Of a stretch of 64,000 nucleotides of DNA, positions 1,649 to 30,301 are shown in pieces. The stretch comes from Candidatus Omnitrophota bacterium (GTDB lineage Bacteria > Omnitrophota > Gorgyraeia > Zapsychrales > Zapsychraceae). How positions within the stretch are numbered: the first letter of the stretch is position 1; every line of letters begins with the position of its first letter. The notes under the pieces are model-generated. The model saw only the letters and a program-made list of their open reading frames with translations. It was not told the DNA's origin and did no database searches. Location of the stretch: assembly GCA_021108075.1 (NCBI GenBank), contig JAIORP010000029.1, positions 10,311 through 74,310 of the forward strand, written 5' to 3'. Made by a program: the position numbers and the translations under genes.

Positions 1649-4063
1649 ATGCGTTTAAGACAAAATCACATTATTTGTTTTTTTATATTGATCATTACTT
1701 TTTTCGCTTTTCTGCCCGCCTTGAGCGGTGAATTCCTGCTTTGGGATGATGATACCCATGTTTTGAATAATCGTTACGTGTCCTCTTTGTCGTTTGACAG
1801 TGTGAAGGGGATGTTCACAAGCCGCGTGAATGATATTTATATCCCATTAACGACGTTTGTTTTCGCGCTGGAATATCATTTCGCTCAATTTAATCCCATC
1901 GTTTTTCATTGTGTGAATCTTTTTCTGCATCTAGGTGTTTGTGTTCTTGTTTTCTGGTTGGCTTTGCGATTAAGGCTTTCTACCGTCGGGGCCTGTGTCG
2001 CCACTCTGATTTTTGCCGTGCATCCGATGCGGGTTGAATCTGTCGTGTGGATCACAGAGCTTAAAGATGTGCTCTACGCGTTTTTTTATTTGGCCGCGGT
2101 CCATGCGTATCTCAATTATTTGCGATATCCTTTTCAGGATAAAAAACTGAAGCCCAAACCGGCAATGGGTTGGTTGGTCTGGACGATTGTGTTTGGGAGT
2201 TTGAGTGTTTTGGCCAAGCCAATGGCTTTAAGCTTACCCTTAATTTTGTTGTTGCTGGATTGGTTTTTAGAGCGGGATCTCAGCCGCCGTTATTTTTTCG
2301 AGAAGATATGGGTGGCCATACCTGTCTGGGGGATCACATTGTGCACGTATTTAGCGCATGCCCGGTTGCCGTCTGAAACCAGTTTTCCCGGGGGCCTGAT
2401 CTGGATCTGGTCCTTTGTTTTTTACTGGACGCAGTTTTTTATCCCGGTCTACAACGTGCCGATTTATGAACTGCCCCAACCGATCGACCTTGGTGTTTAT
2501 GAGTACTACATTTCCGTGATGGCTTTTATACTTATTTTGTATTCTTTCTGGCGTTTCCGTCGGAACAAATGGTATATCTTTGCGGTCGGGTATTTCTTTT
2601 TCTCGATTTTCTTTTTGCTGCGATGGGACGCGGGCTACGACACCAATATGATCGCTGACCGTTTTATGTATTTGCCGGGTCTGGGATTTTGTCTCTTGCT
2701 TGGCAAATGGCTGGACGAGTTCTGGTATGAACGAAGACGAAGAAAGACTGCTTTGGTTCTGAGCGTTTGCGTTGTCGGCTTTTTATTTGCGCGCACCAAT
2801 CAACTCAGCCGGGTTTGGCGGACCAGTGAGTCCCTGTGGGACCATGAGTTAAAATATTATCCGACCCAACACGTCGCATTGACCAATAAGGCTAATGTTT
2901 TGTTAGAGCAGGAAGCGTATCAAGGCGCCTTGCGCGAGTCGCGTGATATCTTCGCCCGGCAGGCCCGGGGCGAGTTGAAGGATCTTGATCCTGAGCAGCG
3001 TCAGGTGCTTGGGAAAGTTTATTATCTGCGCCATCTTTATCGCTCCGCCATTAAAAGCAATCCGGAGTCTTATGACGCGAAATACAATCTGGCCCATTTG
3101 TACCGGGAGATGGGAAAGAACAGCAAGGCCATTGATCTTTACCGAAACATTATCGAAAAAAGTCCCGCCTATGAAGACGCTTATTTTGCTCTGGGGGATA
3201 TGTACCTGGTTGCGAATCGTGTGGAAGAGGCGTTAGGTATTTATCAACGGATTCTGTCACTTTGGAAGAAAGAGGAACGGTTTTATGTCGCTGTGGTCCT
3301 GGCCTTGAGTGAGCAGAGACATTTAGAAAATAAAGACAAACATCTGGTGCAGGCCATGCGCCTTGAGGTGCTTGAAAATTATATCGCCTTGATCAATGCC
3401 AAGCCGATCCAGACCGAATCGTATAAAAAATTAGGACTGATTTACCTCAGTGTAGGGGAAGACAACAGAGCGGTTTCAGCCCTGCAGGCTGTGCTGGATG
3501 AAAGACCGCGGGATATCGATGCGTTAATGTATCTCGGGCAGGTTTTTCGTAATCAGGGCCGGTTCAGGGATGCCTTGGGAACTTTTAAAAAGGTTTATGC
3601 CCTTGATCCTCAGCACATCGACGCCTTGTTCCAGCAGGGTGTCACTTATTTCCGCATGAATGATTTTGACCAGGCCCAGAAAATTTTTTTGGAGGTGACA
3701 GGCCTTCAGCCGGACCATGGCCGGGCCTATTATAATTTGGGGTATATTGCTGAAAAGACCAGCGCGCTCAAGGATGCCATGCAGTGGTATCAGAAGGCTG
3801 TCGAGCATGATCCGCGCAATCCAGAGGCCTATTACAATTTAGGGAATGTTTACGCTGTCCTGGAAATGCATTCTAAATCCAGGTTCTATTACCGACAGGC
3901 ACTGGATATGAATCCCGGGTATACGGACGCTGCGGTAAATTTATCCACGATTTATTATCTGGACGGTGATTTTACCCGGGCCTTGCAATATTTGGATGAG
4001 GCCGTTAAACTAGGGTATCAGCCCCCGGCTGAATACTTACAAATTTTAACCCCCTATCGGTAG
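1649..4063 (+). CDS. Membrane protein with N-terminal multi-pass GT39/PMT-like domain and C-terminal TPR repeats
   Basis: About 10 predicted TM helices in the first 400 aa, followed by repeated TPR-like A..Y..G/A...Y motifs (AYFALGDMY, AYYNLGYI, AYYNLGNVY). Confidence 0.7.
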   Translation: MRLRQNHIICFFILIITFFAFLPALSGEFLLWDDDTHVLNNRYVSSLSFDSVKGMFTSRVNDIYIPLTTFVFALEYHFAQFNPIVFHCVNLFLHLGVCVLVFWLALRLRLSTVGACVATLIFAVHPMRVESVVWITELKDVLYAFFYLAAVHAYLNYLRYPFQDKKLKPKPAMGWLVWTIVFGSLSVLAKPMALSLPLILLLLDWFLERDLSRRYFFEKIWVAIPVWGITLCTYLAHARLPSETSFPGGLIWIWSFVFYWTQFFIPVYNVPIYELPQPIDLGVYEYYISVMAFILILYSFWRFRRNKWYIFAVGYFFFSIFFLLRWDAGYDTNMIADRFMYLPGLGFCLLLGKWLDEFWYERRRRKTALVLSVCVVGFLFARTNQLSRVWRTSESLWDHELKYYPTQHVALTNKANVLLEQEAYQGALRESRDIFARQARGELKDLDPEQRQVLGKVYYLRHLYRSAIKSNPESYDAKYNLAHLYREMGKNSKAIDLYRNIIEKSPAYEDAYFALGDMYLVANRVEEALGIYQRILSLWKKEERFYVAVVLALSEQRHLENKDKHLVQAMRLEVLENYIALINAKPIQTESYKKLGLIYLSVGEDNRAVSALQAVLDERPRDIDALMYLGQVFRNQGRFRDALGTFKKVYALDPQHIDALFQQGVTYFRMNDFDQAQKIFLEVTGLQPDHGRAYYNLGYIAEKTSALKDAMQWYQKAVEHDPRNPEAYYNLGNVYAVLEMHSKSRFYYRQALDMNPGYTDAAVNLSTIYYLDGDFTRALQYLDEAVKLGYQPPAEYLQILTPYR

Positions 4064-4157: not shown

Positions 4158-4780
4158 TTCTTTTTTCATGAAGGTTCCGCGGCTTTAGCGAAGCAGTACA
4201 AAGCTTTGTTCATATCGCCTACGCGAAGCGGAATTTGTTCCCGCGTCGCTTCAGGCATTAACCCGGAAGCGACACAAAATTATTACCCGCTGTATTCCTG
4301 ACATATCAGGCTGAATGAGAACAGAATTTGTCAGAGGTGATCTTCATGCCAATTTCAGTCCTGGATTGAAGATTTCCTGTCGGCCTGTTGGACTTGAATT
4401 TTGAATTCGCGTAGAGCACGAAAAAGAGAATTCTCTGGCACCTGTATTCGGCATGGATCCCGATTGTATTCAGTCGTTTAATGGAGTGAATTCCTCTGAG
4501 CTCTGCTCCGAGGAGATTCACTTTTGATGAATTTGAGTGAAATTATCGACTGGAAACCGGAAAAACGCGAAAAATTGTCGATTTTGGTCTGTGAGCTTAT
4601 ACAAAGAGGATACGGGATCTTAACTGGACATTAATTACGATAATCGTATATACTTCAAGTATTTATAGGAATTCAGTTATATTGTTTTTTTCAGGAAAAC
4701 CCTTTCCCGACGAGGTAAAATTTAGAAAAATGCCTGTTGTTAGGCTGATTAGTCCATTATAAAAATAATCTTAATAATTG

Positions 4781-4809
4781 TTGACACTGGAAGGCTCATG
4801 TGTAAAAAT
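4781..4809 (+). promoter_or_regulatory. Candidate sigma-70 promoter upstream of the first porin-like gene
   Basis: TTGACA, 17-nt spacer, then TGtAAAAAT (extended -10-like). It would give a ~180-nt leader. Confidence 0.3.
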
Positions 4810-4990
4810 GTGTCGTATTTTTACATAATCCAGAGATGATTCTAATTAGACTCAGAAAGGGGGGAGGAAAATTTAAGGTCGGGGTCATCAAGAAACTGGC
4901 ATAGTTTCGAAAGTAACCGGGATAGTTGAGTTGTTTTATCTTGGCCTATATAGATTTATAAAGCAAAATTTTTACTTTAAGGAGAATCAA

Positions 4991-6406
4991 ATGAGAAAAA
5001 GTATACTTTTGGCAATGATCATGGTCGCCTTTGTGGCCATGCCGGCATTTGCTAGTGTACAAAACATTAAAATCAGTGGTGGGGTTGATTCCTACTGGGC
5101 ATACCGTGAAGACTTCGATTTCGGTTATGAAGCAACCACAATCGGTGGGGACAAAATTCAAAACATATTCTTCACCATCACGAGCTTACAAGTCGATGCG
5201 GACTTAACCGACAACGTGACAGCAACAATCGCGTTAGTTAATGAAAGGGCCTGGGGTAATGATACTGATGCTACTCGAGGGCTTTCAAATTCAGGGGCTC
5301 AAACTGACGTTGAAATTGACCTCGCGTTTGTCACACTAAGAGAAATGCTTTATTCACCATTAACACTGGTTATCGGTCGTCAAAGATTACCAAAGTACGG
5401 TAATGGTTTAATCGTATCCAAGGGTACAGGCGTCGGCAATTCAAATTTAACCGATGTCGTCCAGGACTACCGTGGGATCAAGGCTATGGACGCCATCCGC
5501 GCTATTCTGGATTATGATCCGTTAACCGTTGAAATCATCTATGGTAAATTCGATTCTAACACAGTCGCGGGTGCTTCTGAGGAAGACGATGATGTCGATC
5601 TTTACGGCATCCAGACCGCTTATGAATTAGGCGATGACATGAACACATTGGTCGAAGCTTATTTCTGGGCAAAAATCAACAAAGAAACAACACAAGCAGC
5701 TGCAAATTGTGATCTTAAACCTGACACAGTTTATACACCTGGTTTACGCGCCAGCACAACCCCGATCGAAGGTTTAACCGTGTCCGGGGAAATCGCGATG
5801 CAATCAGGAACCAAAGTTATCAGTACCGCAAGAGATGCAGAAAATCAAAAACGAAAAGCCATGGCCGCTGAATTCATGGCCACGTATCAAGTTCCTGTGG
5901 CTGAAGATTATAATCCGGTTGTTTCTTATGATTATATTTATGCTTCAGGGGATAGCAACCCAGCAGATGAAACATCATCAGGTGAAGTTTCCAGAAATAA
6001 ATGGACGGCCTGGGATCCAATGCTTGAAGGCACATTAGGCGGAAGCAAGATTTTCAACGCCTTGTTCAGCTTAACAAACGTGCATGTTCATTCTTTTTCA
6101 TTGCAAGCCAATCCGATGGAAGACGTGACTTCTAAGGTCGTTTTTTCAAAATATTGGTTAGATAAAGAAACAGACGGAACAGCATGGACATTAAACCGAA
6201 CAGATACTTCAGGTGCAGAAGTTGTCGGCGCGCAAGACGATGAAACAGACCTGGGTTATGCTGTTGATCTCTACACAACTTATGACTACACAGAAGATGT
6301 TTCTATCGGAGCATTAATGTCATGGTTCGTGCCAGGCGATGTCTTTAGTAAAGACAATCAAGACGCAGCTTCACAAGTTATGGTTGATGTTAATGTTGAT
6401 TTTTAA
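4991..6406 (+). CDS. Porin-like outer-membrane beta-barrel protein, paralog 1 (ORF track start 4931; ATG 4991 with RBS AAGGAG preferred)
   Basis: Signal peptide MRKSILLAMIMVAFVAMPAFA; alternating amphipathic beta-strand pattern; C-terminal ...VNVDF ending in an aromatic residue, as in OM beta-barrels. It is a clear paralog of 6813-8210. Confidence 0.6.
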   Translation: MRKSILLAMIMVAFVAMPAFASVQNIKISGGVDSYWAYREDFDFGYEATTIGGDKIQNIFFTITSLQVDADLTDNVTATIALVNERAWGNDTDATRGLSNSGAQTDVEIDLAFVTLREMLYSPLTLVIGRQRLPKYGNGLIVSKGTGVGNSNLTDVVQDYRGIKAMDAIRAILDYDPLTVEIIYGKFDSNTVAGASEEDDDVDLYGIQTAYELGDDMNTLVEAYFWAKINKETTQAAANCDLKPDTVYTPGLRASTTPIEGLTVSGEIAMQSGTKVISTARDAENQKRKAMAAEFMATYQVPVAEDYNPVVSYDYIYASGDSNPADETSSGEVSRNKWTAWDPMLEGTLGGSKIFNALFSLTNVHVHSFSLQANPMEDVTSKVVFSKYWLDKETDGTAWTLNRTDTSGAEVVGAQDDETDLGYAVDLYTTYDYTEDVSIGALMSWFVPGDVFSKDNQDAASQVMVDVNVDF

Positions 6407-6472: not shown

Positions 6473-6812
6473 GTCCTCCTTCAGGCTCGTTCAGATTTTT
6501 CTGAACAACAAGTCTTTACTTTTCAACATGCCCATAGTTTGCGTATGTAATAAACGGTATAAGGTTGTAGGACTCTCTTAAGTGAGATAAGTATAAATGT
6601 ATTTAAACATTTGCGTTGTTTCCGTCGAGTCATGTATTAACGAAAAATAAATTGAAAAAATTCACAAAATTTATTGACCGCTTTTTATATGTATGCAAGA
6701 ATTCATGAAGTAATCAATTTATTTAAAGAAGCGTATTATTTTGATACAGATGTTGCTTGTCTTTCATATATATGTCAATAATTCAAATTGTATCTTCGGA
6801 GGAAAAACACAG

Positions 6813-8210
6813 ATGAAAAAAATTGGTTTAACAATTCTTATGTTGGCCGTAGCATCTACCTCAGCCTTTGCCGCTGTGCAAAATTTGAAAGTCAGTGGAA
6901 GTGTCCGCTCAACCTTTATTCATCGGGAAAATTTTGATCTGGGGAAAGCCCCGACAGGTGATGAAATCCAGGACATCTTCATTACCAATACCCATTTGCG
7001 GCTCGACGCCGACTTGACCGACAAAGTCTCGGCGACGATCGATTTGTTAAATGAACGGGCATGGGGTAATGACACGGCAAGCGCGGGGCTGGAGACCGGC
7101 GTGAAGATCAATCTGGCCTATGTGACCTTGCGTGAGATGCTTTATTCGCCATTGACGATTGTCGTCGGACGGCAGTTGCTCAGGTATGGTAACCAATTTG
7201 TTTTAGGGGAAAGCAAAGAACCTGTTTTTCCGCCGGGATCAAGCAATCTCAGTTTTGTGGCCTTTGATCAAAGTGACGTGGAATCCTTTGACGCGGTGAA
7301 GTTTATATTAGACTATCAACCTTTAACGATTGATATCTTCTATGCCAAGATAGATTCCAATACGGTCGCCGGGGCCTCTGAAGACGATGATGATATCGAC
7401 TTTTATGGGATCTATTCCGTGTATGATTTTGAGAATGTGGCCAAGACCAAGATTGACGCCTATTTTCTGGCTAAGATTGATAAGTATGTCGCGAATAACG
7501 CATCTCCAGCGCCGGCAACAGGTATTAAACCGGATACAATTTACATGCCGGGTTTTCGGGTCAGCAGCGGTTTAGCCGAAGGCTTGTGGACCTCGCTTGA
7601 GGTTGTCTGGGAAAGGGGGAATAAAGTTTTGAACAGTGCTACTCCGGCGGAGAACCAAAGGCGCGAGGCCTTTGCGACACAGTTATTGACTTTTTACCAG
7701 CTGCCGGTCCTGAAAGACTATAAACCCGCCCTTATCCATGAATTTACATATACAACCGGGGATAGTAATAAAACGGATACCGCTTATTCCGGAGAAGTTT
7801 CAAGAAATGTCTTCACCGCCTGGGACCGTCTGTACGAAGATCAGGATAATGGTTCGATCTTGAACACGATTGTTTCTTTATCGAACGCAGTGGCGCACAC
7901 CGTTGCCTTTCAGTTTTATCCTGTGGAAGAGTTAAAGACGGTTATCGCCTGGACCGGTCTATGGACGAACACGCCGATTTATTCCGCTTCAGAAATCATT
8001 GCCCAGCCTGACGGCTTTAACGTCGTGACGTTGACCCCGGGTCAACGTGAGATCGGTTATGAAATCGATTTGTTCATGTATTATCAATACACCGAAGATG
8101 TGGAATTTAATCTTTCGCTTGGTTGGGTCATCCTTGGTGATGCTGTCAATGATACGGCTAATCCGAACGGGCCGTTCCAGGTCCTGGCCGGGACGAAAGT
8201 TAATTTTTAG
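6813..8210 (+). CDS. Porin-like outer-membrane beta-barrel protein, paralog 2 (ORF track start 6741; ATG 6813 with RBS GGAGGA preferred)
   Basis: Signal peptide MKKIGLTILMLAVASTSAFA. Shares long blocks with paralog 1 (LTD.V.ATI.L.NERAWGNDT, LAYVTLREMLYSPLT.V.GRQ, NTVAGASE.DDD.D.YGI). C-terminal ...KVNF. Confidence 0.6.
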   Translation: MKKIGLTILMLAVASTSAFAAVQNLKVSGSVRSTFIHRENFDLGKAPTGDEIQDIFITNTHLRLDADLTDKVSATIDLLNERAWGNDTASAGLETGVKINLAYVTLREMLYSPLTIVVGRQLLRYGNQFVLGESKEPVFPPGSSNLSFVAFDQSDVESFDAVKFILDYQPLTIDIFYAKIDSNTVAGASEDDDDIDFYGIYSVYDFENVAKTKIDAYFLAKIDKYVANNASPAPATGIKPDTIYMPGFRVSSGLAEGLWTSLEVVWERGNKVLNSATPAENQRREAFATQLLTFYQLPVLKDYKPALIHEFTYTTGDSNKTDTAYSGEVSRNVFTAWDRLYEDQDNGSILNTIVSLSNAVAHTVAFQFYPVEELKTVIAWTGLWTNTPIYSASEIIAQPDGFNVVTLTPGQREIGYEIDLFMYYQYTEDVEFNLSLGWVILGDAVNDTANPNGPFQVLAGTKVNF

Positions 8211-8536: not shown

Positions 8537-9124
8537 GTGTCCGATAAAATGAATAGAGATGAAATTTATGATCATTTAGCCCAGGTATATTTGGGTAAAA
8601 GAAAAGACGCGGATGTTAAGAGTAAAAAACAATATGATGTTTGGCTTCTGATTAACATTTTTATTATGGTCATTATTTTTGCCAGCGCAACGTATGGGTT
8701 GACAGCCTTTTTAACCCAAAAGAGGCCTGAGTTGCGCAGCAAAGTTATTTATACCCTCTATCAGGGGCCAATCCAAATTATGTACAACTTTAGGAATAGT
8801 GAGAACCCAACTAAAGAATTTACATTATCTGTTAAAAATATCGATGCGACGAAATACAAGAAATTAGTTTTTCACGCCCGCGCAAGAGAAGAAGGATCCC
8901 CGGGCATTGTCAAGGTTGTCTTAAGCAATCGAAGGAATGAAACCGCGCATTTTTATATCAGAGGTGTCGACCTGAAGTGGAAAAGTTATACGATCCCGTT
9001 TGAGGACTTTAAAGAAATTACGGATTGGAAAGGGTTGCAGAATATTTCCTTTGTGCTTGAAAGCTGGAATGTTGAGAAAGACAAAGGTGTCGTTCTCATT
9101 GAAGACATCGAATTTTCAGGGTGA
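8537..9124 (+). CDS. Hypothetical membrane-anchored protein with a CBM11/CIA30-like beta-sandwich domain
   Basis: Single TM helix (WLLINIFIMVIIFASATYGLTAFL). The C-terminal 130 aa follow a pattern typical of CBM/CIA30-like domains (KWKSYTIPFEDF...ISFVLES...GVVLIEDIEFSG). Confidence 0.45.
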   Translation: MSDKMNRDEIYDHLAQVYLGKRKDADVKSKKQYDVWLLINIFIMVIIFASATYGLTAFLTQKRPELRSKVIYTLYQGPIQIMYNFRNSENPTKEFTLSVKNIDATKYKKLVFHARAREEGSPGIVKVVLSNRRNETAHFYIRGVDLKWKSYTIPFEDFKEITDWKGLQNISFVLESWNVEKDKGVVLIEDIEFSG

Positions 9125-9226: not shown

Positions 9227-10360
9227 ATGAAGATTATATCAGTTGCTAATCAAAAAGGGGGTTGTGGGAAAACAACATCAGCCATTAATTTAGCATCTGC
9301 GTTAGGTCAAAACGGAAAACGCGTTTTATTGGTCGATTTGGATCCGCAAGCCCACGCTTCTTTAGGACTCAACATTGAAAGTCAAGACAGCATGTATAAT
9401 GTTATATCAAAATTAACCCCTAGAAAACTGAAGATAACAGATATTATTCATCGCGTTGAGGATTGTTTTGACATTGTGCCCTCCAATATCCTGGTCGGAA
9501 CTTTGGAGCAGGAACTCGCTGATGAAATTGGCCGTGAGTTGAAATTAACCGAAATCATGAAGCCCATGCGGGAACTTTATGATTATATCCTTATTGACTG
9601 TCCTCCGAGTTTAGGCATTTTGACGGTCAATTCGATCCGCGTCAGCGATGAGATCATTATTCCTGTTGAAACATCCCGTTTCTCCATGCAGGGAGTTGAT
9701 CACATTATGGATATCGTGAAGTTAGTCCGTGACCGTTTGAACCATGCCGTTAAATGCCGTATTTTGATTACCATGTTTGATTCCCGTCTGCGTCATTCGT
9801 TTTCCATGCTGGATACCTTCAGGCAGAAGTTTAAAGATTTATTGTTCGACACGATCGTTCATACCAATGTTAAGTTGAAAGAATCCGCTGTGATGGGGCA
9901 AACTGTTTCTTGTTTTGACAAGTACTGCCGGGGCTCTAAAGACTATTACACATTGTCTAAAGAAATTATCAGCTTAGAGCGCCAGGAAAAAGAACAAGAA
10001 GCCCGTACGGTTTTCCGTTCATTGTCCTCTCGGATGCAAAAGATGATCGAGAAAGAAACACGACAGGTCATCAGAGACACAAAGTTTGCCATCAAAGCGC
10101 CCGGGGCAAAAGCCGTTTATGTGACCGGATCATTCAATGACTGGTCTTTGGATGATTCCTGCCGCCTGCGTGAAGCTTCAATGGGGCAATGGGAAATCGA
10201 TATTCCATTAAAAGCTGGCCAATACGAATATCAGTTTATCGTTGACGGAGTATGGAAAGAAGATCCCAGCAATCCGGCGCAGGAACGCAATGTGTATGGT
10301 GACAATAATTCTGTGATGGATGTTAAATCTGAAGCGCAGCCTGTCTTTGAGAGGTTATAA
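9227..10360 (+). CDS. ParA/MinD-family ATPase fused to a C-terminal AMPK-beta-type glycogen-binding domain (CBM48)
   Basis: Deviant Walker A KGGCGKTT and ParA core (LLVDLDPQAHAS, DCPPSLGILTVNS). The C-terminal AKAVYVTGSFNDWS...GQYEYQFIVDGVWKEDPSNP...GDNNSVMDV aligns closely with the AMPK beta GBD (VYLSGSFNNWS...EHQYKFFVDGQWTHDPSEP...GTVNNIIQV). Confidence 0.8.
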   Translation: MKIISVANQKGGCGKTTSAINLASALGQNGKRVLLVDLDPQAHASLGLNIESQDSMYNVISKLTPRKLKITDIIHRVEDCFDIVPSNILVGTLEQELADEIGRELKLTEIMKPMRELYDYILIDCPPSLGILTVNSIRVSDEIIIPVETSRFSMQGVDHIMDIVKLVRDRLNHAVKCRILITMFDSRLRHSFSMLDTFRQKFKDLLFDTIVHTNVKLKESAVMGQTVSCFDKYCRGSKDYYTLSKEIISLERQEKEQEARTVFRSLSSRMQKMIEKETRQVIRDTKFAIKAPGAKAVYVTGSFNDWSLDDSCRLREASMGQWEIDIPLKAGQYEYQFIVDGVWKEDPSNPAQERNVYGDNNSVMDVKSEAQPVFERL

Positions 10361-10567
10361 TCACTGATTTCATTGATTCAAATGGGGGATTTTATTTTTA
10401 TTGAGACGTGTTTTATTTTTCCCTTGTGCCCTGTCGAGTTCGTTGTCCTGTCATGCTTTCATGTCTAAATGCCGGGCCGTAGATTTCTTTGGGGATAAGT
10501 TTTCGCGATAGTAAGGCGTGAAATGAAATTATCTCAGTGAGATACAAAAATAATTTATTCAGTTATA

Positions 10568-11326
10568 ATGTCATTATTTGAAAAAATATTAAGCGGGCTG
10601 AAAAGCCTGGTTGATTTATTTCCTCGTAGAAAAAAGAAATACAATCGTAATATTCCAAAAGTCCGGCGCACACCGCCTGCCGATAGAAAGAAACCGCAAT
10701 CACGCTCGACAAGGGCTTTCGGCGCGAGACCAAAAAAGAAGCAGACCTCAGCACGATCAACAAAACGCAGACAAACGGGCTCTTCTGCGAAGGCCTCCGC
10801 AAGCAAGATTTCTCCCTCAAAAAAACAGACCGGAAAAAAAACGGAGCCTCGTTATGGAAAAGAGACAATTGTAAAGAAGGCATCCGGGACACCAAAGAAG
10901 GCGCTTGCGGAAACACCGAAAGCCACCCGCCGCAAAGATTCGAAATCTTCAGCGAAGACGCCAGGGAAACAGCGGCCGGGCTCCCGGCGCAAGGCCAGGC
11001 TGATGGAGCGATCGCCTTCAAAAAGGCGAACTCAGCCCAGAGGAAAAATTCAATCAGGAAAACTGAATTCGTTGGATGAGGAAAAATACATTGGAGCCAT
11101 CACCCATTATTTCTCCCGGATAAATGTCGTGGTCTTAAAAATGGAGAATGGCCCATTGCGTCTGGGAGATGATATACATATCAGGGGCAGGAAAACGAAC
11201 TTTAAGCAACCCGTCGAATCTTTACAAGTCGAAAGTTTTGATGTTAAAAAAGCCGAGAAAAATCAATTGGTTGGACTGAAAGTCCTCAAGCCGGTGACGG
11301 TCGGTGATCAGGTCTTTAAAATTTAA
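10568..11326 (+). CDS. Highly basic low-complexity protein (K/R/S/T-rich N-terminal 170 aa) with a C-terminal EF-Tu-domain-2-like beta-barrel
   Basis: The N-terminus is about 35% Lys+Arg (RRKKKYNRNIPKVRRTPPADRKKPQSRSTRAFGARPKKKQ...). The C-terminus GAITHYFSRINVVVLKMENGPLRLGDDIHIRG...LVGLKVLKPVTVGDQVFKI resembles a translation-protein beta-barrel. The overlapping ORFs 10555-11021(-) and 10611-10874(+) are composition artefacts. Confidence 0.55.
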   Translation: MSLFEKILSGLKSLVDLFPRRKKKYNRNIPKVRRTPPADRKKPQSRSTRAFGARPKKKQTSARSTKRRQTGSSAKASASKISPSKKQTGKKTEPRYGKETIVKKASGTPKKALAETPKATRRKDSKSSAKTPGKQRPGSRRKARLMERSPSKRRTQPRGKIQSGKLNSLDEEKYIGAITHYFSRINVVVLKMENGPLRLGDDIHIRGRKTNFKQPVESLQVESFDVKKAEKNQLVGLKVLKPVTVGDQVFKI

Positions 11327-11643
11327 TGGAGTGAATTCCTCGTAGCTCTGCTGCGAGGAGAAGCACTCCCGGCGGGAATTTTCCACCTTTATTTAAGGCG
11401 GGGATAAGAGTCCGCTCCAGCGGCTTTATCGCTGGACAACGTCTTGCGCCGGGAGCGCTTGAAGCAGAATGCCCCACGGGTGTGAACCCGCGGGATCTAT
11501 TGGATATGGGTGGAATGAATGATCGTGAGAAATTTTATGCCGACATTGTCATCGGCGCACTGGCCTGCTTTTTTAATTAAGGCCTGGCAAAAATATCAGG
11601 ACAGTTTAAACCATTAACGCAAAAATTAGGGAAAGAGGAGTAT

Positions 11644-12078
11644 ATGCCGAAAAAAAAGGAAGTAGGGGCAAAAGAAAAGAATCTCATGCGCCGGTATCTC
11701 ATCTGGTGCTACAAAACCACAAAAGAAGATCTCGACCGCATTGAACGCTATTTTACACAACGTGTTGTCGATGAACAGTTGTTAAAATGTTTACAAAAGG
11801 ATCCTGCGATCAAGAAAGGAGCAGATAAAGACCTCGTTAAGGCGGTTGATGATTTTCAACAGTACATGAATATTAAACTTGAAAAGGCGGTCAGGCAAAA
11901 GTTTGCAGACCAGGATCAGGCGGTTTTTCATCCAGAGTATCATTATTTGAAACTGCGGTTTGAGGCCATCGAGAAGACCGTTGTGCATTTTTTTGGTAAG
12001 GTCGAGTTGAGCCATATTGAGGCTTTATATGAAACGGAGATGACGCGCCGGATATTAGAGGCGCGGGAGCACACATAA
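11644..12078 (+). CDS. hypothetical protein
   Basis: 144-aa ORF preceded by the RBS AAAGAGGAG. No recognisable motif. Confidence 0.45.
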   Translation: MPKKKEVGAKEKNLMRRYLIWCYKTTKEDLDRIERYFTQRVVDEQLLKCLQKDPAIKKGADKDLVKAVDDFQQYMNIKLEKAVRQKFADQDQAVFHPEYHYLKLRFEAIEKTVVHFFGKVELSHIEALYETEMTRRILEAREHT

Positions 12079-12205: not shown

Positions 12206-12490
12206 TTATTTGCGACGCATATAACGGTAGTCTTTCATGCGTTGTTTTTGACGCTCCATATAATCTTTATATTGTTCACGGACTTCACGCATGCGGTCCT
12301 CTTGTGTTTTTTGGGTGAGGGCTTGCTTTTCTTCGTTATCTTTGACGGCTTTTTCCTTAGGGGGTTCTTCGATCGAAGTCTCAGGTTTAAGGAGCCCAAA
12401 GCTCAAACCAATGGAATGCATCGCGCCTAAAAACATGACGCCACTATAAAGGACAGCCGCTATTATAATTGCTCCAAACCAGCTTTTCAT
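12206..12490 (-). CDS. Small secreted or membrane-anchored charged protein (hypothetical)
   Basis: N-terminal hydrophobic segment MKSWFGAIIIAAVLYSGVMFLGA, followed by a K/E/R-rich tail. Confidence 0.4.
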   Translation of the reverse strand: MKSWFGAIIIAAVLYSGVMFLGAMHSIGLSFGLLKPETSIEEPPKEKAVKDNEEKQALTQKTQEDRMREVREQYKDYMERQKQRMKDYRYMRRK

Positions 12491-12777: not shown

Positions 12778-13218
12778 ATGGAAAAAAAATCAAAAAAGAA
12801 AACAGAGCAAGAACCAAAACAATTTGATTTAAGCAAAGAGTGGGAGATGACAAAGAAACACTTGCGTGTTTTTAGCAAGGAAGCGGTTGAACTTGCCAAG
12901 AAAGGAGAAAAAGAGCTGATTAAATTTTCCAAGATTGGAAAATTGCATGTTGATAATACAGCGGTATCCATTAAGAAAGAAAAATTGTATTATCAGATCG
13001 GTAAAGAATACGTGAAGTCTAAAGGAGAACCGCAGAAGAACGAAGAGTTAAAGAAACTTGTCGACGCCTTAAAGAATTTAGATAAAGAGCAAACCGTCAT
13101 CAAATCCAGAATTAAAAAGGGTCAACCAGAAAGTCCCGCTCCGGACAAAAAAACGTCCACCAAGAAAAAGACAATCAAAAAGAAAACGGTCAAGAAAAAA
13201 GTGGTTGATAGTGAATAA
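12778..13218 (+). CDS. Lysine-rich coiled-coil protein with histone-H1-like C-terminal tail (phasin/PhaF-like architecture)
   Basis: RBS AAAGGGGAG; K/E-rich helical N-terminal region; C-terminal KKTSTKKKTIKKKTVKKKVV tail. Confidence 0.5.
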   Translation: MEKKSKKKTEQEPKQFDLSKEWEMTKKHLRVFSKEAVELAKKGEKELIKFSKIGKLHVDNTAVSIKKEKLYYQIGKEYVKSKGEPQKNEELKKLVDALKNLDKEQTVIKSRIKKGQPESPAPDKKTSTKKKTIKKKTVKKKVVDSE

Positions 13219-14303: not shown

Positions 14304-16040
14304 ATGCGGATATCCATGAAGAAAGACGGACTCACACGCTGGCTTGATTTCATTCTGCTCAGCTGTGTGATTGTATTTATAACCTGGCAGCCGTTTTATT
14401 TGCACGGTACGCTTAATACGTTTGAGCATGGACTGTATTTGCCAGGGATTCAGGGGATCCTTGATGGGAAAATGCCTTATCGGGATTTTATGTATTTGCG
14501 TGGACCATTTGAATTGTATGTGCCCGCATTCATGATGATGGTTGCCGGTCGAAATGTTGCCGTCCTAGCGACTTATTTTTATGCCGGTACCGTCTTAACA
14601 TTATTAATGTGCCTTTTGATTGCCAGAGAGGTTCTCGATAGGCGCTGGTTGTTGGCGCTCTTTGTTTTTGTCCTCACCGCGCGCACTTTTCCGCGCGTGG
14701 TTTTTACGTATTGGGGTGGGTTGCGCTACGTCTGGGGGCTGTTATCCGTCTGGTTCTTGATAAAATTTTTTAAAAGTTATAAGAAATCATGGTTGTTTTT
14801 CTGTGGGATAACGACGGCGATTGCGTTCTGGACAAGTATCGAAATGGGCTTTTGCTCAGGCATGATGGCGGGGCTGAGCTTGGTGATCATCGCCGGTCTA
14901 TCCAGGTTAAAGGAATCGGATCATAAACCGAAGATACCGCTGATCTCTGGGTTCGTTGTTTTTGGAGGAGCCGTTTTGGTGCTCAGTGTGCCCTACGCGA
15001 TATATTTAATGGCCAACGGGGCTTTGATACCTTTTATCGATAATGTGCTGACCATTGTCACACGCCTAAACCAAACCTTTCCACAAACGGATCTTGTTCC
15101 ATTGAACCTCGGTGATGTGCTGCTTGGGATGCTAAGCCCTGCCAGTAAGAATTTTCGTCATTTAACGCCTATCTACACCTATCTGATCATGGCGGGTTAT
15201 CTGTACATCCGGGCGCGTTTGCGGCGTTGGCAAACACAGGATTCCTGCGTGCTGGTAATTTGGATCTATGGGGCCTTGCTCTATGCGACGTCTTTTCGTA
15301 ATCTTTGGGCTTCCCAGTTTGAGATGGCCTTGCAACCAGAGAAAATTTTGTTGTTCTGTTTGATTCACCTTTTAATTGACTTTTTGTTGCGCTGTCGCGA
15401 CGATTTGAGAACGAATTTGCAACCGGAACAGGTCAGCCGGCTTAATTGGTGGAAAAAGCGTTTGGGCCTAGGGCTGATTTATTTTTACCTTGTCAGTGTC
15501 ATTATGTCTTCAATCATTTACCCTTTTGTGCGTTTTTCCAGGCGATTTACCAGCATTAAATATGTTTTTTGCCTGCTGAAGGGGGAAGATCCCGCGCAAT
15601 TGTCTCCGCTCAGGGATCAACAGCAGAAGAAATTAGCCATTCCCCCTCTAAAGGGGCTGACTGTTCCTGCCTGGCAGGCGGATGATTTTTATGAAATCTA
15701 TGACTTTGTCCAAAAAAATGTGCCGGTTGATGAGCCCGTATTGTTTTATCCGGAGATGGCCGCTTACTATTTTATTGTTGACCGACCTTATTTAAGCCGT
15801 TTTCCCATGGGGACTTTTCCCTGGTTTAATGAGCGTTGGTACGGGGACTTTAAATGCGCCCTCATTGGGCAAAAACCACGTTACGCTATCTTCCCCAAGG
15901 AGTTACCGGATTATTTTGACAAGCAACATTTTACTGTCGAAGCCAATCGGGTCAAATATAGCGAAACGATGGATTTTATCAGGACAAATTATAAACCGAT
16001 TAAGAAGACACATTCATTTGTTATTTGGGAGAATATATAG
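14304..16040 (+). CDS. Large polytopic membrane protein (putative membrane glycosyltransferase-like; hypothetical)
   Basis: More than 10 predicted TM segments across 578 aa. No soluble catalytic motif was recognised. Confidence 0.45.
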   Translation: MRISMKKDGLTRWLDFILLSCVIVFITWQPFYLHGTLNTFEHGLYLPGIQGILDGKMPYRDFMYLRGPFELYVPAFMMMVAGRNVAVLATYFYAGTVLTLLMCLLIAREVLDRRWLLALFVFVLTARTFPRVVFTYWGGLRYVWGLLSVWFLIKFFKSYKKSWLFFCGITTAIAFWTSIEMGFCSGMMAGLSLVIIAGLSRLKESDHKPKIPLISGFVVFGGAVLVLSVPYAIYLMANGALIPFIDNVLTIVTRLNQTFPQTDLVPLNLGDVLLGMLSPASKNFRHLTPIYTYLIMAGYLYIRARLRRWQTQDSCVLVIWIYGALLYATSFRNLWASQFEMALQPEKILLFCLIHLLIDFLLRCRDDLRTNLQPEQVSRLNWWKKRLGLGLIYFYLVSVIMSSIIYPFVRFSRRFTSIKYVFCLLKGEDPAQLSPLRDQQQKKLAIPPLKGLTVPAWQADDFYEIYDFVQKNVPVDEPVLFYPEMAAYYFIVDRPYLSRFPMGTFPWFNERWYGDFKCALIGQKPRYAIFPKELPDYFDKQHFTVEANRVKYSETMDFIRTNYKPIKKTHSFVIWENI

Positions 16041-28127: not shown

Positions 28128-29555
28128 TTATTTTTCACAGGACGCATTTTTGTTTTTGTTTGAAAAATTCAACAAAATAATAACAGCCGTGATGATGGGG
28201 AAGAAATGCAGGATGCCTCTTGAGAGGGATGTCTCAGTCTGACTGATCCAGAAGAAGTGCTGCGTGAAAGAATATCCACAGATATAAACGCCAAAATACA
28301 TCAGCAGCGCAAGCAATAACAATTTTGTCTCGGTCTGTATTTTTTTGTTTATCAGGTGAATGAATGATATGAAGAATATCAACCATGTCAGGTTCCAATT
28401 GTTGGAATAGAACATGTTTGTGAGGATGCGTGTGATAACGATCCAGATTTTCTGAAATGTTTCCATTGATAAATGAAGTTTAAGGTTGTATAGGTCAAAA
28501 TGTTTTGATTCTGTGGATGTTTCGAGGCGTAAGGTTTGTCGTATTCGATAGAATTTGAAGAAATGAAACGGTAAACAGATGAGCAGACCGGGGATTGTAA
28601 AAGTAAAGAACAGTCCAATTCTCTTTTTGAGGGAATCATTTTTCCGCAGGAACAGCATATAGGCAAATATCATTATGTGGATGAACAAATACCCTGTGCC
28701 TTCCAATTTAACAAATGATGTTAATCCAGAAAAGATGGCTGCAACGATCAAGAAATCCGTTCGATGATTCTTAAACCATAGAATGAGCAATAGGAGTGCC
28801 GTGTAATTGTAATACATTATTGTGAAATCTCTGTAAGCAATCGATGAGTGATAGAGAAAGAAGTTTGAGGAAAGCAGGAAGACGCTTCCTAAAAGCGCCC
28901 AGCATTTGTTGGTAAAATTTTTTAGAAAATGGTGCTGAATAATGATGATCGACAGGGCGTAGATAGGAAAAAAAATTTTGATGACTTGATCATCCCATTC
29001 TCCCAGGGTGATGTTTAACCACGCTTCGATAAAAGGAACGTGTAGCGGATAAGTGTTATGAGGCAATGTGTCATAATAGATGAATGATTTTTCAAAATAA
29101 AAAACTTTTGCGTTAAATGAATGCGTTGATAATGTGTCCCAACTATAGACGGGTATACTTAAAGCGATTGAAAAGGTAGCGAGCAGGTTTATTCCGATAA
29201 AGTATAAAAAAAGAATTGTGAGATATTTTTCCAGTGTTGATAAAGGTTCTGTCTGGCAGGTGACTTCTTTATAGAGCGCCACGTTTCCCTTATTATTTTT
29301 TTTTGATCGGGAGTTGAGCATGAACAGCACAAAGGCGGTGAATAACAGCGGAAGATTGATCGCCGGGCTTGTCATGGGAACATTGAAGATCCCGAGAAAC
29401 AACATATGCAAAGAAATCATTCCCAGCCCAAGGCCATAGGCAAGCGCAGCCTTAAATGTCACGGAATAATTTTTTCCTCTTGATATAAAGTTGATCAATT
29501 GAAAACCTGAAAAGACGGGAATAAACAGAATGGATAATGATTTTAAAATGAGCAT
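28128..29555 (-). CDS. Polytopic membrane protein, very AT-rich (putative surface-glycan polymerase/transferase-like; hypothetical)
   Basis: 475 aa with about 12 hydrophobic segments and a strongly F/I/L/N/Y-biased composition. Confidence 0.45.
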   Translation of the reverse strand: MLILKSLSILFIPVFSGFQLINFISRGKNYSVTFKAALAYGLGLGMISLHMLFLGIFNVPMTSPAINLPLLFTAFVLFMLNSRSKKNNKGNVALYKEVTCQTEPLSTLEKYLTILFLYFIGINLLATFSIALSIPVYSWDTLSTHSFNAKVFYFEKSFIYYDTLPHNTYPLHVPFIEAWLNITLGEWDDQVIKIFFPIYALSIIIIQHHFLKNFTNKCWALLGSVFLLSSNFFLYHSSIAYRDFTIMYYNYTALLLLILWFKNHRTDFLIVAAIFSGLTSFVKLEGTGYLFIHIMIFAYMLFLRKNDSLKKRIGLFFTFTIPGLLICLPFHFFKFYRIRQTLRLETSTESKHFDLYNLKLHLSMETFQKIWIVITRILTNMFYSNNWNLTWLIFFISFIHLINKKIQTETKLLLLALLMYFGVYICGYSFTQHFFWISQTETSLSRGILHFFPIITAVIILLNFSNKNKNASCEK

Positions 29556-30301
29556 TATTCTCCTCGTACCGCTATTATATGTGATTTGCCATGAACATAT
29601 AGGGGAACATACCCTTCAGGGATATGATCAATAGCATTGTTTTTGTGAAATAAAATATAGCAATTTGCTTCTTTTCCTTTTATGTGCCGCAGGTCGAGGG
29701 GATAGAGGTGGAATGAGATGAACCGATGGATGTACATGCCCGGGTCGACGGAGAGATCATAGTCTGTTAGTAATTCAGGGATATGCGTTTCGGTCAGACG
29801 TTTTTTGCCTTCGAGTAAGAACCGATAATCATCATAAGTTGTTTTAAGAGGGAGATCCTGGTCGTAGGTGCTGTCGATTAAAATTTGGGCGTTTTTGAAT
29901 TCCGCTGACTGGCCGAAATATTGAAATAATTTGTTTAAATGAAATACATGCAGGCTTAAAAGCTGAAAACAACAAAAAGATGCGAACAGGATCATGAGTG
30001 GATTTACAAAAAGGAAAGCCAGGTTCCTGTGGTGAACCTTGAATGCCCCCAGGAATCTGGATATGAATAAAATGAGTAAAGTTGACAAATATGTAAAGTA
30101 AAAGTATTTGTAGAATTCGTGGCCGTTAATAACAGGCGCCAAGATGATATTATTACCGGGGACATATAAATTGAACAATAATAAATCAGGCAGAGACACT
30201 TTTGTCCGAAGAAAATACAGGGTGATGACGGTAAATATAAAGACGATAGAGAAGATGGTCAGTATGCCTATTCTTCGATTGTTTGACCTGGGGTCAGGCA
30301 T
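29555..30301 (-). CDS. hypothetical membrane-anchored protein
   Basis: N-terminal TM helix (ILTIFSIVFIFTVITLYFL) and further hydrophobic segments. The start overlaps the stop of the downstream gene by 1 nt (operon). Confidence 0.4.
   Translation of the reverse strand: MPDPRSNNRRIGILTIFSIVFIFTVITLYFLRTKVSLPDLLLFNLYVPGNNIILAPVINGHEFYKYFYFTYLSTLLILFISRFLGAFKVHHRNLAFLFVNPLMILFASFCCFQLLSLHVFHLNKLFQYFGQSAEFKNAQILIDSTYDQDLPLKTTYDDYRFLLEGKKRLTETHIPELLTDYDLSVDPGMYIHRFISFHLYPLDLRHIKGKEANCYILFHKNNAIDHIPEGYVPLYVHGKSHIIAVRGE

Follow-up and report, generated by a model that had tools for sequence, protein, structure and literature searches.

We analysed a window of 64,000 nt (the whole stretch of DNA considered here) from a Candidatus Omnitrophota metagenome-assembled genome (MAG; contig JAIORP010000029.1) and describe the gene located at 10568..11326 (+), the product of which is probably cytoplasmic and is a fixed component of an Omnitrophota-wide gene module that includes a ParA-family ATPase with a C-terminal CBM48 module (hereafter ParA-CBM48). 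The protein is built of three parts, an N-terminal amphipathic helix, a polycationic tail and a C-terminal beta-barrel, and is referred to below as the tailed barrel protein. An earlier sequence-only reading of this DNA, which saw a two-part protein, was right about the tail and the barrel and missed the helix of residues 1-18. We tentatively consider the tailed barrel protein to be a partner or adaptor of ParA-CBM48, a prediction to which we assign somewhat less than an even chance. This reading is ranked first because the gene position, the N-terminal charge and the conserved lysines all fit it and because the tail occurs almost only together with ParA-CBM48.

Conservation of the gene and its linkage to ParA-CBM48

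The open reading frame (ORF) listing gives the gene an ATG start and 252 amino acids (aa) followed by a stop codon, and the product is 100% identical to GenBank MCD4779290.1, a "hypothetical protein" from a Candidatus Omnitrophica MAG. The gene is genuine: about 35 loci preserve its reading frame along with the two structured ends. Across these approximately 35 orthologous ORFs, the frame stays open through the helix, a tail of 40-174 residues and the barrel, which rules out the possibility that the ORF is not a gene. Public gene models of several orthologues lack the helix and a large part of the tail, because they start too far 3' or end at a contig edge: P0005 and P0006 are annotated with 112-113 aa, compared with ORFs of 230-246 aa, and shortened calls affect the orthologues in loci L002 (7647-8339), L003 (7602-8342), L051, L089 and L090. 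Three further sequences, P0067, P0047 and P0128, were considered as independent lineages with a basic tail and no helix, and were discarded: they proved to be copies of this same Omnitrophota gene that were cut short in gene calling or by a contig end, or else lay on contigs too short to judge.

The preceding gene in the window, at 9227..10360 (+), encodes a Soj-like ParA ATPase with a C-terminal CBM48/AMPK-beta-type module (approximately residues 283-369), as identified by Pfam (AAA_31, E 1.3e-54; AMPK1_CBM, E 3e-14; CBM_48, E 5e-5; CBP_BcsQ, E 3.6e-12) and by structure matches. Because it carries the deviant Walker A motif KGGCGKT at residues 10-16 and has Soj/ParA proteins as its closest structures, namely the chromosomal ParA/Soj structures 8RAY (2e-49), 1WCV and 6IUB, the ATPase looks functional at the level of sequence. 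Its ATPase domain is far nearer to Soj than to BcsQ or MinD. Where Soj-type structures have the Arg of "NVRLSE", which we take to be the DNA-binding residue R189 of Bacillus subtilis Soj, ParA-CBM48 carries a Lys. The carbohydrate-binding module (CBM) aligns with the glycogen-binding module of AMPK beta-1 (1Z0N, E 2.3e-10) and retains the motifs GSFNxW and VDGxW, in which the Trp residues are presumably the sugar-stacking tryptophans. Identity among ParA-CBM48 proteins across Omnitrophota is 55-75%.

Of 34 distinct ParA-CBM48 loci, drawn from Omnitrophota genomes at species level and from metagenome contigs, 33 have the tailed barrel gene downstream of the ParA-CBM48 gene on the same strand; this total includes two of the three further loci located by a search begun from ParA-CBM48. 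The sequence-only reading had proposed that a pair not kept together in related genomes would refute the connection; the pair is kept. The location of the gene 3' of the ParA-CBM48 gene is likewise as described there (same strand, with a gap of 207 nt after 9227..10360), and the description "directly downstream" holds in the window, but in most genomes a gene for a 108-aa membrane protein, TM108, intervenes. The genes overlap or are closely packed; for example, those for ParA and TM108 overlap and 3-60 nt separate TM108 from the barrel gene. All tailed versions with enough upstream sequence stand in the ParA block, with locus L069 as the sole exception, and the tail is found almost solely where ParA-CBM48 is present.

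The N-terminal helix and the polycationic tail

Residues 1-18 (MSLFEKILSGLKSLVDLF; 10568..10621 (+)) are not of low complexity and, by family consensus and hydrophobic moment, form an amphipathic helix, which is followed by RRKKK. The helix consensus was derived from 124 tailed representatives, which also served to define tail lengths and composition, and reads M-[ASP]-[ILF]-[LFIV]-[KD]-K-[LIF]-[ILF]-x-S-[LF]-[KR]-K-[LIF]-[FL]-K-K-K. Among these representatives, residues 1-16 have a hydrophobic moment of 0.56, compared with 0.28 for windows within the tail; for the helix of the window protein, muH is 0.63, the mean hydrophobicity is 0.71 and the hydrophobic face spans about 180 degrees. HeliQuest-type D values have a median of 2.3 across the family, and 78% of the helices exceed the lipid-binding discriminant of 1.34. 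By sequence, the high moment, the broad hydrophobic face, the flanking basic residues and the conservation of the pattern are those of a membrane-targeting helix. Lysines occupy consensus positions 6, 12, 13 and 16-20, with a basic run at residues 16-22 in the family; the window protein has K6, K12 and RRKKK at residues 20-24.

The tail, delineated by composition and charge, comprises residues 19-172 (10622..11083 (+)). In the window protein, it consists of 19.5% K, 14.9% R, 12.3% S, 9.1% P, 8.4% T and 8.4% A, has a net charge of +44 across 154 residues and is presumably disordered. The N-terminal region of about 170 aa had been described as almost pure K/R/S/T/P/A; it is indeed strongly basic and of low complexity, but these six residues total 73%, which makes the description a slight overstatement, and residues 1-18 are exempt from it. 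Tail length varies from 41 to 174 residues among the 124 representatives, the window protein having the longest (174 residues ahead of the barrel). The tails are alike in composition (26% K, 14% R, 11% S, 8% P and 8% A) and their sequence is not conserved. This composition is compatible with the histone-H1-like class, with DNA binding being a predicted property only.

Three overlapping ORFs in other frames, previously noted as artefacts of the tail, are present at 10563-11021 (-; 152 aa), 10555-10806 (-) and 10611-10874 (+) in the ORF listing, and the orthologous loci bear out that view. ORFs overlying the tail, differing in frame, strand and length, were found in 35 of 37 orthologous tailed loci; because neither frame nor length is conserved in these 35, we take the shadow ORFs to be by-products, which fits a compositional effect of the purine-rich tail.

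The C-terminal beta-barrel: fold, relatives and spread

The barrel, defined by AlphaFold2, Foldseek and the family hidden Markov model (HMM), comprises residues 173-252 (11084..11323 (+)) and contains, from the invariant columns, the motifs G-x-I-T-H-Y-F, GD-x-I-x-I-x-G, S-L-Q-V-E and G-Q-L-V-G-L-K-V. An AlphaFold2 model of the barrel based on 11 homologues (predicted local distance difference test, pLDDT, 93.2; predicted template modelling score, pTM, 0.81) is all-beta with six strands. Among PDB entries, Foldseek ranks the C-terminal domain of 4HE5/4HE6 highest (E 1.3e-6, TM-score 0.83-0.89); the two superimpose over the whole domain with a root mean square deviation of 1.1-1.2 A and 23% identity across 82-83 aligned columns. 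The next matches are to domain II of IF2, EF-Tu, eIF5B and LepA (E 2e-4 to 3e-3, TM-score 0.65-0.78), and the barrel, as modelled, has the fold of translation-factor domain II.

At the sequence level, the family HMM matches the C-terminal approximately 85 residues (318-405) of two Omnitrophota Peptidase_U32 proteins (L028, 12583-13848; L068, 16745-17962) with E 8e-14 and 3.5e-10, and NCBIfam places both closest to the tRNA U34 hydroxylase TrhP. The barrel and the C-terminal domain of these TrhP-like U32 proteins are homologous. The Pfam U32_C model did not detect the C-terminal domain of the L028 and L068 proteins at E<=0.01, and Pfam PF16325 (Peptidase_U32_C) matched neither the window protein nor, with a single exception at E 0.056, any of 15 family members. 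The window protein has no match to the U32 catalytic domain (PF01136), so that its barrel stands alone, and no G domain in Pfam; its N-terminal 172 residues consist of the helix and the low-complexity tail. The Pfam family GTP_EFTU_D2 (PF03144) matches the window protein with 20.6 bits (E 6e-4) over the whole protein and 23.3 bits (E 8.6e-5) for the isolated domain, below the gathering threshold of 30.3 bits. Among the 15 family members, 14 weakly match GTP_EFTU_D2 (best E 3.3e-7) and 7 match GTP_EFTU_D4. Because the score is below the threshold and there is no G domain, the window protein is not a member of PF03144.

Searched against PDB sequences, the family profile yielded marginal similarity to eIF5B domain IV (E 0.02) and weaker similarity to SelB (E 0.11-0.17); phmmer with the barrel against the same sequences produced noise alone (major vault protein, beta-lactamase), and an NCBIfam scan of the window protein gave no match. 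The sequence-only reading had compared this part of the protein to EF-Tu domain 2 and had proposed a profile search of it. The likeness is real at the level of the fold, with AlphaFold2, Foldseek and a subthreshold Pfam match in agreement, but the closest kin are the C-terminal domains of TrhP-like U32 proteins; similarly, the profile search returned the weak eIF5B and SelB signal, but stronger homology to the U32 C-termini. Automated names assigned by JGI to tail-less members include "putative protease", which probably reflects the U32 relationship, and "translation initiation factor IF-2" is also in use.

U32 enzymes hydroxylate tRNA and rRNA (PMC6599085, PMC5727448). In NCBIfam, the TrhP model has 449 positions, whereas the quinone-acting family members UbiU and UbiV have shorter models of 331 and 292, and because of this difference RNA recognition could be attributed to the extra C-terminal barrel of TrhP. 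By analogy, it is plausible that the barrel studied here also binds RNA; we found no statement of RNA binding by a U32-C-type barrel in PMC5727448.

The family profile search, exhaustive over 1.84 billion representatives, recovered 3,197 clusters (50% identity) at E <= 1e-3 and 2,086 at E <= 1e-10. The helix, basic tail and barrel architecture predominates among the top matches. Other architectures are tail-less barrels of 78-91 aa, tandem double and triple barrels, a TIR domain with two barrels and a zinc ribbon with two barrels (TIR, zinc-ribbon and triple-barrel examples are P0012, P0015, P0017, P0018 and P0035), which suggests that the barrel is a reusable ligand- or partner-binding module, possibly in defence-type proteins too. 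A complementary scan with one genome per GTDB species confirmed 356 loci, of which the best 80 were fetched, with ORFs called and the window proteins searched; the query was built from six closer sequences, given that the broad alignment of 15 sequences had no stretch conserved enough for back-translation. The form with helix and tail is almost restricted to Omnitrophota. Tail-less homologues of 84-90 aa are present in Aminicenantes, WOR-3, TA06, Paceibacterota, DPANN/Bathyarchaeota and Thermoleophilia, and none of approximately 50 tail-less loci has a ParA gene nearby. Neighbours of the tail-less barrels include aconitase B, a short-chain dehydrogenase/reductase and methylmalonyl-CoA mutase in Aminicenantes, and RtcB in Paceibacterota. 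An attempt to derive a function from these neighbours was abandoned: they show no coherent theme, and the signal in Aminicenantes reflects a gene order common to a single clade.

Other module members and surrounding genes

The module runs on one strand in the order Alginate_exp/AlgE-like outer-membrane barrel, p195, ParA-CBM48, the optional TM108 and the tailed barrel gene, which is almost invariably the last. The Alginate_exp-type outer-membrane beta-barrel of the window is encoded at 6741..8210 (+) (Pfam E 9e-11), and such a gene precedes p195 in all loci with enough flanking sequence. In the window, a second, tandem paralogue is present at 4931..6406 (+) (Pfam E 1.3e-14), a duplication also seen in L012 and L021. 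An 804-aa TPR protein is encoded ahead of the tandem barrels, at 1649-4063 (+). The combination of the TPR protein with two Alginate_exp barrels resembles the AlgK/AlgE or BcsC layout of polysaccharide export. Comparison of the loci revealed no polysaccharide synthase or transporter gene conserved in or near the block.

The first gene of the tight block encodes p195 (8537..9124 (+); the true start is probably at 8549), a protein with a cytoplasmic N-terminal peptide, one transmembrane helix and a CBM11-like beta-sandwich, according to AlphaFold2 and Foldseek. The model (pLDDT 83) has a long N-terminal transmembrane helix followed by the beta-sandwich, which matches the CBM11 structure 1V0A (E 1.5e-8). 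Neither Pfam nor a profile search against PDB sequences gave a match, and p195 was resolved by fold alone. We identified 473 homologues, with the named sources all of Omnitrophota type and one UniRef name reading "CBM11 domain-containing".

TM108, a highly conserved protein of 108 aa with three transmembrane segments, is encoded between the ParA and barrel genes in approximately 29 loci (for example, L001, 7656-7985, and L087, 4208-4534), often overlapping the parA stop codon, and is missing from the window, L012, L019 and L029. The 207-nt gap at 10361..10567 in the window contains no ORF of >=50 aa, and tblastn with three TM108 proteins matched 31 loci and not the window. A link of TM108 to magnetosomes was considered and rejected: the match to MamF_MmsF/DUF4870 is weak and appears in precomputed tables only, a direct Pfam scan at E<=0.001 was empty, and there are no other magnetosome genes.

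Downstream of the barrel gene, at 11644..12078 (+), the window encodes p144, a conserved helical protein with the invariant motifs R-Y-L-x-W-C and Y-E-x-E-M-T, which has no Pfam match and the family profile of which has no PDB match. By phmmer across the loci, p144 is present in 23, at distances of 2 nt to 4.4 kb: it is adjacent in 18 and displaced by 1.0-4.4 kb in 5. In the available flanks of 13 other loci, seven of which have 3-10 kb of downstream sequence, p144 was not found. The module ends at the barrel gene, because the barrel gene stays with ParA where p144 is displaced or not found.

The 317-nt intergenic region at 11327-11643 (+) has a predicted minimum free energy of -116.3 kcal/mol (z -3.95), a value equalled by none of 100 shuffles. 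A search of Rfam came up empty even at E<=1, and the region may represent a structured leader, a terminator region or an uncharacterised RNA; in other loci, the interval after the barrel gene sometimes holds an ORF of about 64 aa. Further downstream lie two genes without Pfam matches, one at 12206-12490 (-) for a conserved Omnitrophota protein of 94 aa with a transmembrane segment and a basic tail, and one at 12778-13218 (+) for p146, a Lys-rich, coiled-coil-like protein conserved in Omnitrophota. Pfam matches among the 38 ORFs across 69-42232 are of the housekeeping kind (sigma factor, PNPase, FtsK, RodZ, MiaB, riboflavin and fatty-acid synthesis) and include no glycogen-metabolism or parB genes. 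The ORFs at 14304-16040 (+; 578 aa), 28128-29555 (-; 475 aa) and 29555-30301 (-; 248 aa) had no Pfam match at the thresholds used.

Proposed mechanism and rival explanations

Partners of ParA/MinD ATPases contact the ATPase through a positively charged N-terminus, and the remainder of the protein binds the cargo (PMC10241942, PMC11407121); in McdB, the N-terminal 20 residues with three lysines are necessary and sufficient for McdA binding (PMC12139897). If the tailed barrel protein is such a partner, its first approximately 20 residues (Lys 6, 12 and 13 and the K/R run) would be the "luggage tag" through which, as with ParB, McdB and MinE, the ATP-bound ParA dimer is contacted and its hydrolysis of ATP stimulated; the same residues might also bind the inner membrane, as in MinE. 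The polycationic tail would keep the whole protein attached to a polyanion, for which nucleoid DNA or RNA is the most plausible choice, and the barrel would bind an organised object or ligand. RNA is plausible as that ligand because the nearest relatives of the barrel sit on tRNA-modifying enzymes. The module as a whole would position or assemble something that is probably glucan-related, either storage-glucan granules or an envelope polysaccharide apparatus, given the CBM48 on the ATPase, the CBM11-like protein and the outer-membrane barrel encoded upstream. The suggestion that a cationic N-terminus encoded beside parA is the layout of a partner thus agrees with the published pattern in charge, lysines and adjacency, with the reservation that the helix may be a membrane anchor and that the p195 peptide is a rival contact.

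Several observations weigh against the partner reading. The helix is kept as a hydrophobic pattern, with I, L, F and V interchangeable and the top residue reaching 40-50% per position; such pattern-type conservation, together with the lipid-helix score, fits a membrane anchor better than a specific protein interface. Because the pattern rather than the residues is conserved and the lipid-binding score is high, the helix may be a membrane anchor instead of a ParA contact. The 11-residue cytoplasmic motif at the N-terminus of p195, I6-Y-D-H-L-A-Q-V-Y-x-G-K17, is invariant in 32 of 32 homologues, which makes this peptide a strong prospect for contacting another protein, possibly ParA-CBM48; in that role it ranks no lower than the helix. 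In one ParA-CBM48 locus, L087, the barrel gene is missing from its usual place, which is taken by a gene for a Cys-rich protein of 171 aa (4637-5152) that carries a hydrophobic segment near its N-terminus. Conversely, L069, from a marine uncultured bacterium, encodes a tailed homologue with a similar helix (MNFLDFWKKLFKEEKKK...; 2344-2853), flanked by a GIY-YIG-like gene on one side and radical-SAM genes on the other, and the 2.3 kb upstream contain no ParA-CBM48. All loci come from one phylum, and the wider region, from the sigma factor to PNPase, FtsK and RodZ, is also syntenic; because of this synteny within a single phylum, part of the adjacency between the ParA and barrel genes may be inherited and not selected. 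Finally, the kin of the barrel point to RNA, which, to our knowledge, is used by no known ParA cargo system.

The helix is also central to the main rival explanation, possible but rather unlikely in our estimate, under which the tailed barrel protein belongs to the same envelope module as a peripheral-membrane nucleic-acid-binding protein and is not an ATPase activator. The helix would be a lipid anchor, the tail and barrel would tether RNA or DNA beside the complex of TM108, p195 and the outer-membrane barrel, and the p195 N-terminus would contact ParA, which would help to localise or assemble that complex in the manner of BcsQ or TadZ. Such a role is consistent with a helix conserved in pattern alone, with D values typical of lipid-binding helices, and with the two membrane proteins of the block, one of which carries the invariant p195 motif. 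The homology of the barrel to the C-terminus of the TrhP-like tRNA hydroxylases, seen alongside the shorter UbiU and UbiV models, speaks for nucleic acid as the tethered ligand, and the ParA match to CBP_BcsQ (E 3.6e-12) and the CBM11-like and CBM48 modules with the Alginate_exp barrels point to a polysaccharide apparatus. However, the block contains no conserved gene for a polysaccharide synthase or transporter, the ATPase domain resembles Soj far more than BcsQ or MinD, PMC5727448 is silent on RNA binding by U32-C-type barrels, and the lysines within the helix are conserved in position, as in McdB.

If the shared gene order were simply inherited, the protein could be a general histone-H1-like nucleoid-associated protein or an RNA chaperone with no tie to ParA-CBM48; a nucleoid-associated role had also been raised in the sequence-only reading. 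The composition and the +44 charge of the tail do resemble those of H1-like bacterial proteins, the wider region is syntenic across the loci, L069 has the tailed barrel without ParA, rpsO (S15) and pnp follow downstream after a few genes, and a tail-less barrel gene in Paceibacterota adjoins that for RtcB, an RNA ligase. We nevertheless regard this as improbable: synteny breaks right after the barrel gene in at least 12 loci and essentially never between ParA and the barrel, the spacing is operon-like and the tail occurs almost only with ParA-CBM48. An amphipathic N-terminal helix is, moreover, no feature of the H1-like nucleoid proteins known to us. Still further down the scale, and in our opinion highly improbable, is a translation- or ribosome-associated factor, that is, a free module resembling domain II or IV that would dock on the ribosome or on the acceptor end of tRNA. 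The weak matches to GTP_EFTU_D2 (14 of 15 members) and GTP_EFTU_D4 (7 of 15), the marginal eIF5B and SelB signal, the JGI name "translation initiation factor IF-2" and the tail-less forms in the reduced genomes of the candidate phyla radiation (CPR) and DPANN could be read in this way, but there is no G domain, every Pfam match is under the gathering threshold, the closest kin are U32 C-terminal domains, and no linkage to ribosomal or translation genes is conserved.

Significance

ParA/MinD ATPases are the main known bacterial means of positioning large objects, and each new cargo or adaptor has informed the mechanism that they share. If the tailed barrel protein is a ParA partner, it has a new architecture for the class and is paired with a ParA that bears a carbohydrate module. 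A 2024 review of the ParA/MinD family does not mention glycogen or polysaccharide-linked cargo, a full-text literature search returned nothing on a ParA-like protein with a glycogen-binding domain or CBM48, and the Omnitrophota literature checked for ParA, ParB and glycogen contained nothing relevant. The broader proposition, a phylum-wide new glucan-cargo ParA system in which a Soj-like ATPase with CBM48, a membrane-anchored CBM11-like protein, an outer-membrane barrel and a new type of partner that joins a MinE-like helix and an H1-like polycation to a U32-C/EF-Tu-D2-type barrel organise storage granules or an envelope polysaccharide machine relative to the nucleoid and the membrane in ultra-small cells, is one that we put forward as doubtful. 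If correct, it would add a new cargo class and a new adaptor architecture to the ParA/MinD family and would provide the first functional context for the large family of stand-alone U32-C barrels. The findings provide the first genomic context for a family of approximately 3,200 clusters of small barrels related to the C-termini of tRNA- and rRNA-hydroxylating U32 enzymes, and an unusual ATPase gains a concrete candidate partner within a compact module of four to five genes conserved across an uncultured phylum of ultra-small bacteria. Even if the partner reading is wrong, the combination of a lipid-type helix, a +44 polycation and a barrel of the RNA-enzyme type is unusual and would suggest membrane tethering of nucleic acid.

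Comparison with known systems

With the partners of ParA/MinD ATPases (ParB, McdB, MinE, PomX and ParG), the tailed barrel protein shares the location of its gene beside that of the ATPase, the N-terminal lysines and the basic run (PMC10241942, PMC12139897). McdB also has a long disordered region, but its invariant C-terminal tryptophan mediates cargo binding (PMC11321042), whereas the window protein ends in ...VTVGDQVFKI and contains no Trp. Pfam and NCBIfam revealed no ParB (CTPase/helix-turn-helix), ribbon-helix-helix or MinE fold in the window protein, which, judging from its sequence, is not ParB, McdB, MinE or ParG. MinE has an amphipathic helix followed by a basic patch at its extreme N-terminus, similar to the window protein. 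We know of no report of a U32-C-type barrel serving as the cargo-binding domain in this class of partners.

Among histone-H1-like polycationic proteins of bacteria, such as Pseudomonas AlgP and Chlamydia Hc1, the richness in K, R, A, P and S and the high positive charge are the same, whereas the folded barrel, the helix and the parA linkage set the window protein apart; no KPAA-type periodicity was apparent in the tail by eye, no tandem-repeat search having been run. Translational GTPases (EF-Tu domain 2, domains II and IV of IF2/eIF5B, SelB and LepA) have barrels of the same "translation protein" fold, with a weak signal to PF03144 and PF14578, and the window protein differs from them in the lack of a GTPase domain, scores under the Pfam cut-off, a poorer structural match than to U32-C and a gene context unrelated to translation. 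The U32 C-terminal domain of Geobacillus thermoleovorans (4HE5/4HE6) has the same barrel fold and shows sequence homology via the family HMM; in contrast to the U32 proteins, the window barrel stands alone, is preceded by the amphipathic helix and a polycationic tail of 150 aa, and gives no significant match to PF16325.

The ATPase BcsQ, of the ParA/MinD family, acts with the small partner BcsR in cellulose secretion. The Omnitrophota module differs from this system in that the block has no BcsA-like glycosyltransferase family 2 (GT2) synthase, the ATPase is nearer to Soj and the architecture of the partner is different, but the two have in common a ParA-family ATPase with small partners, a TPR protein and an outer-membrane barrel for polysaccharide.

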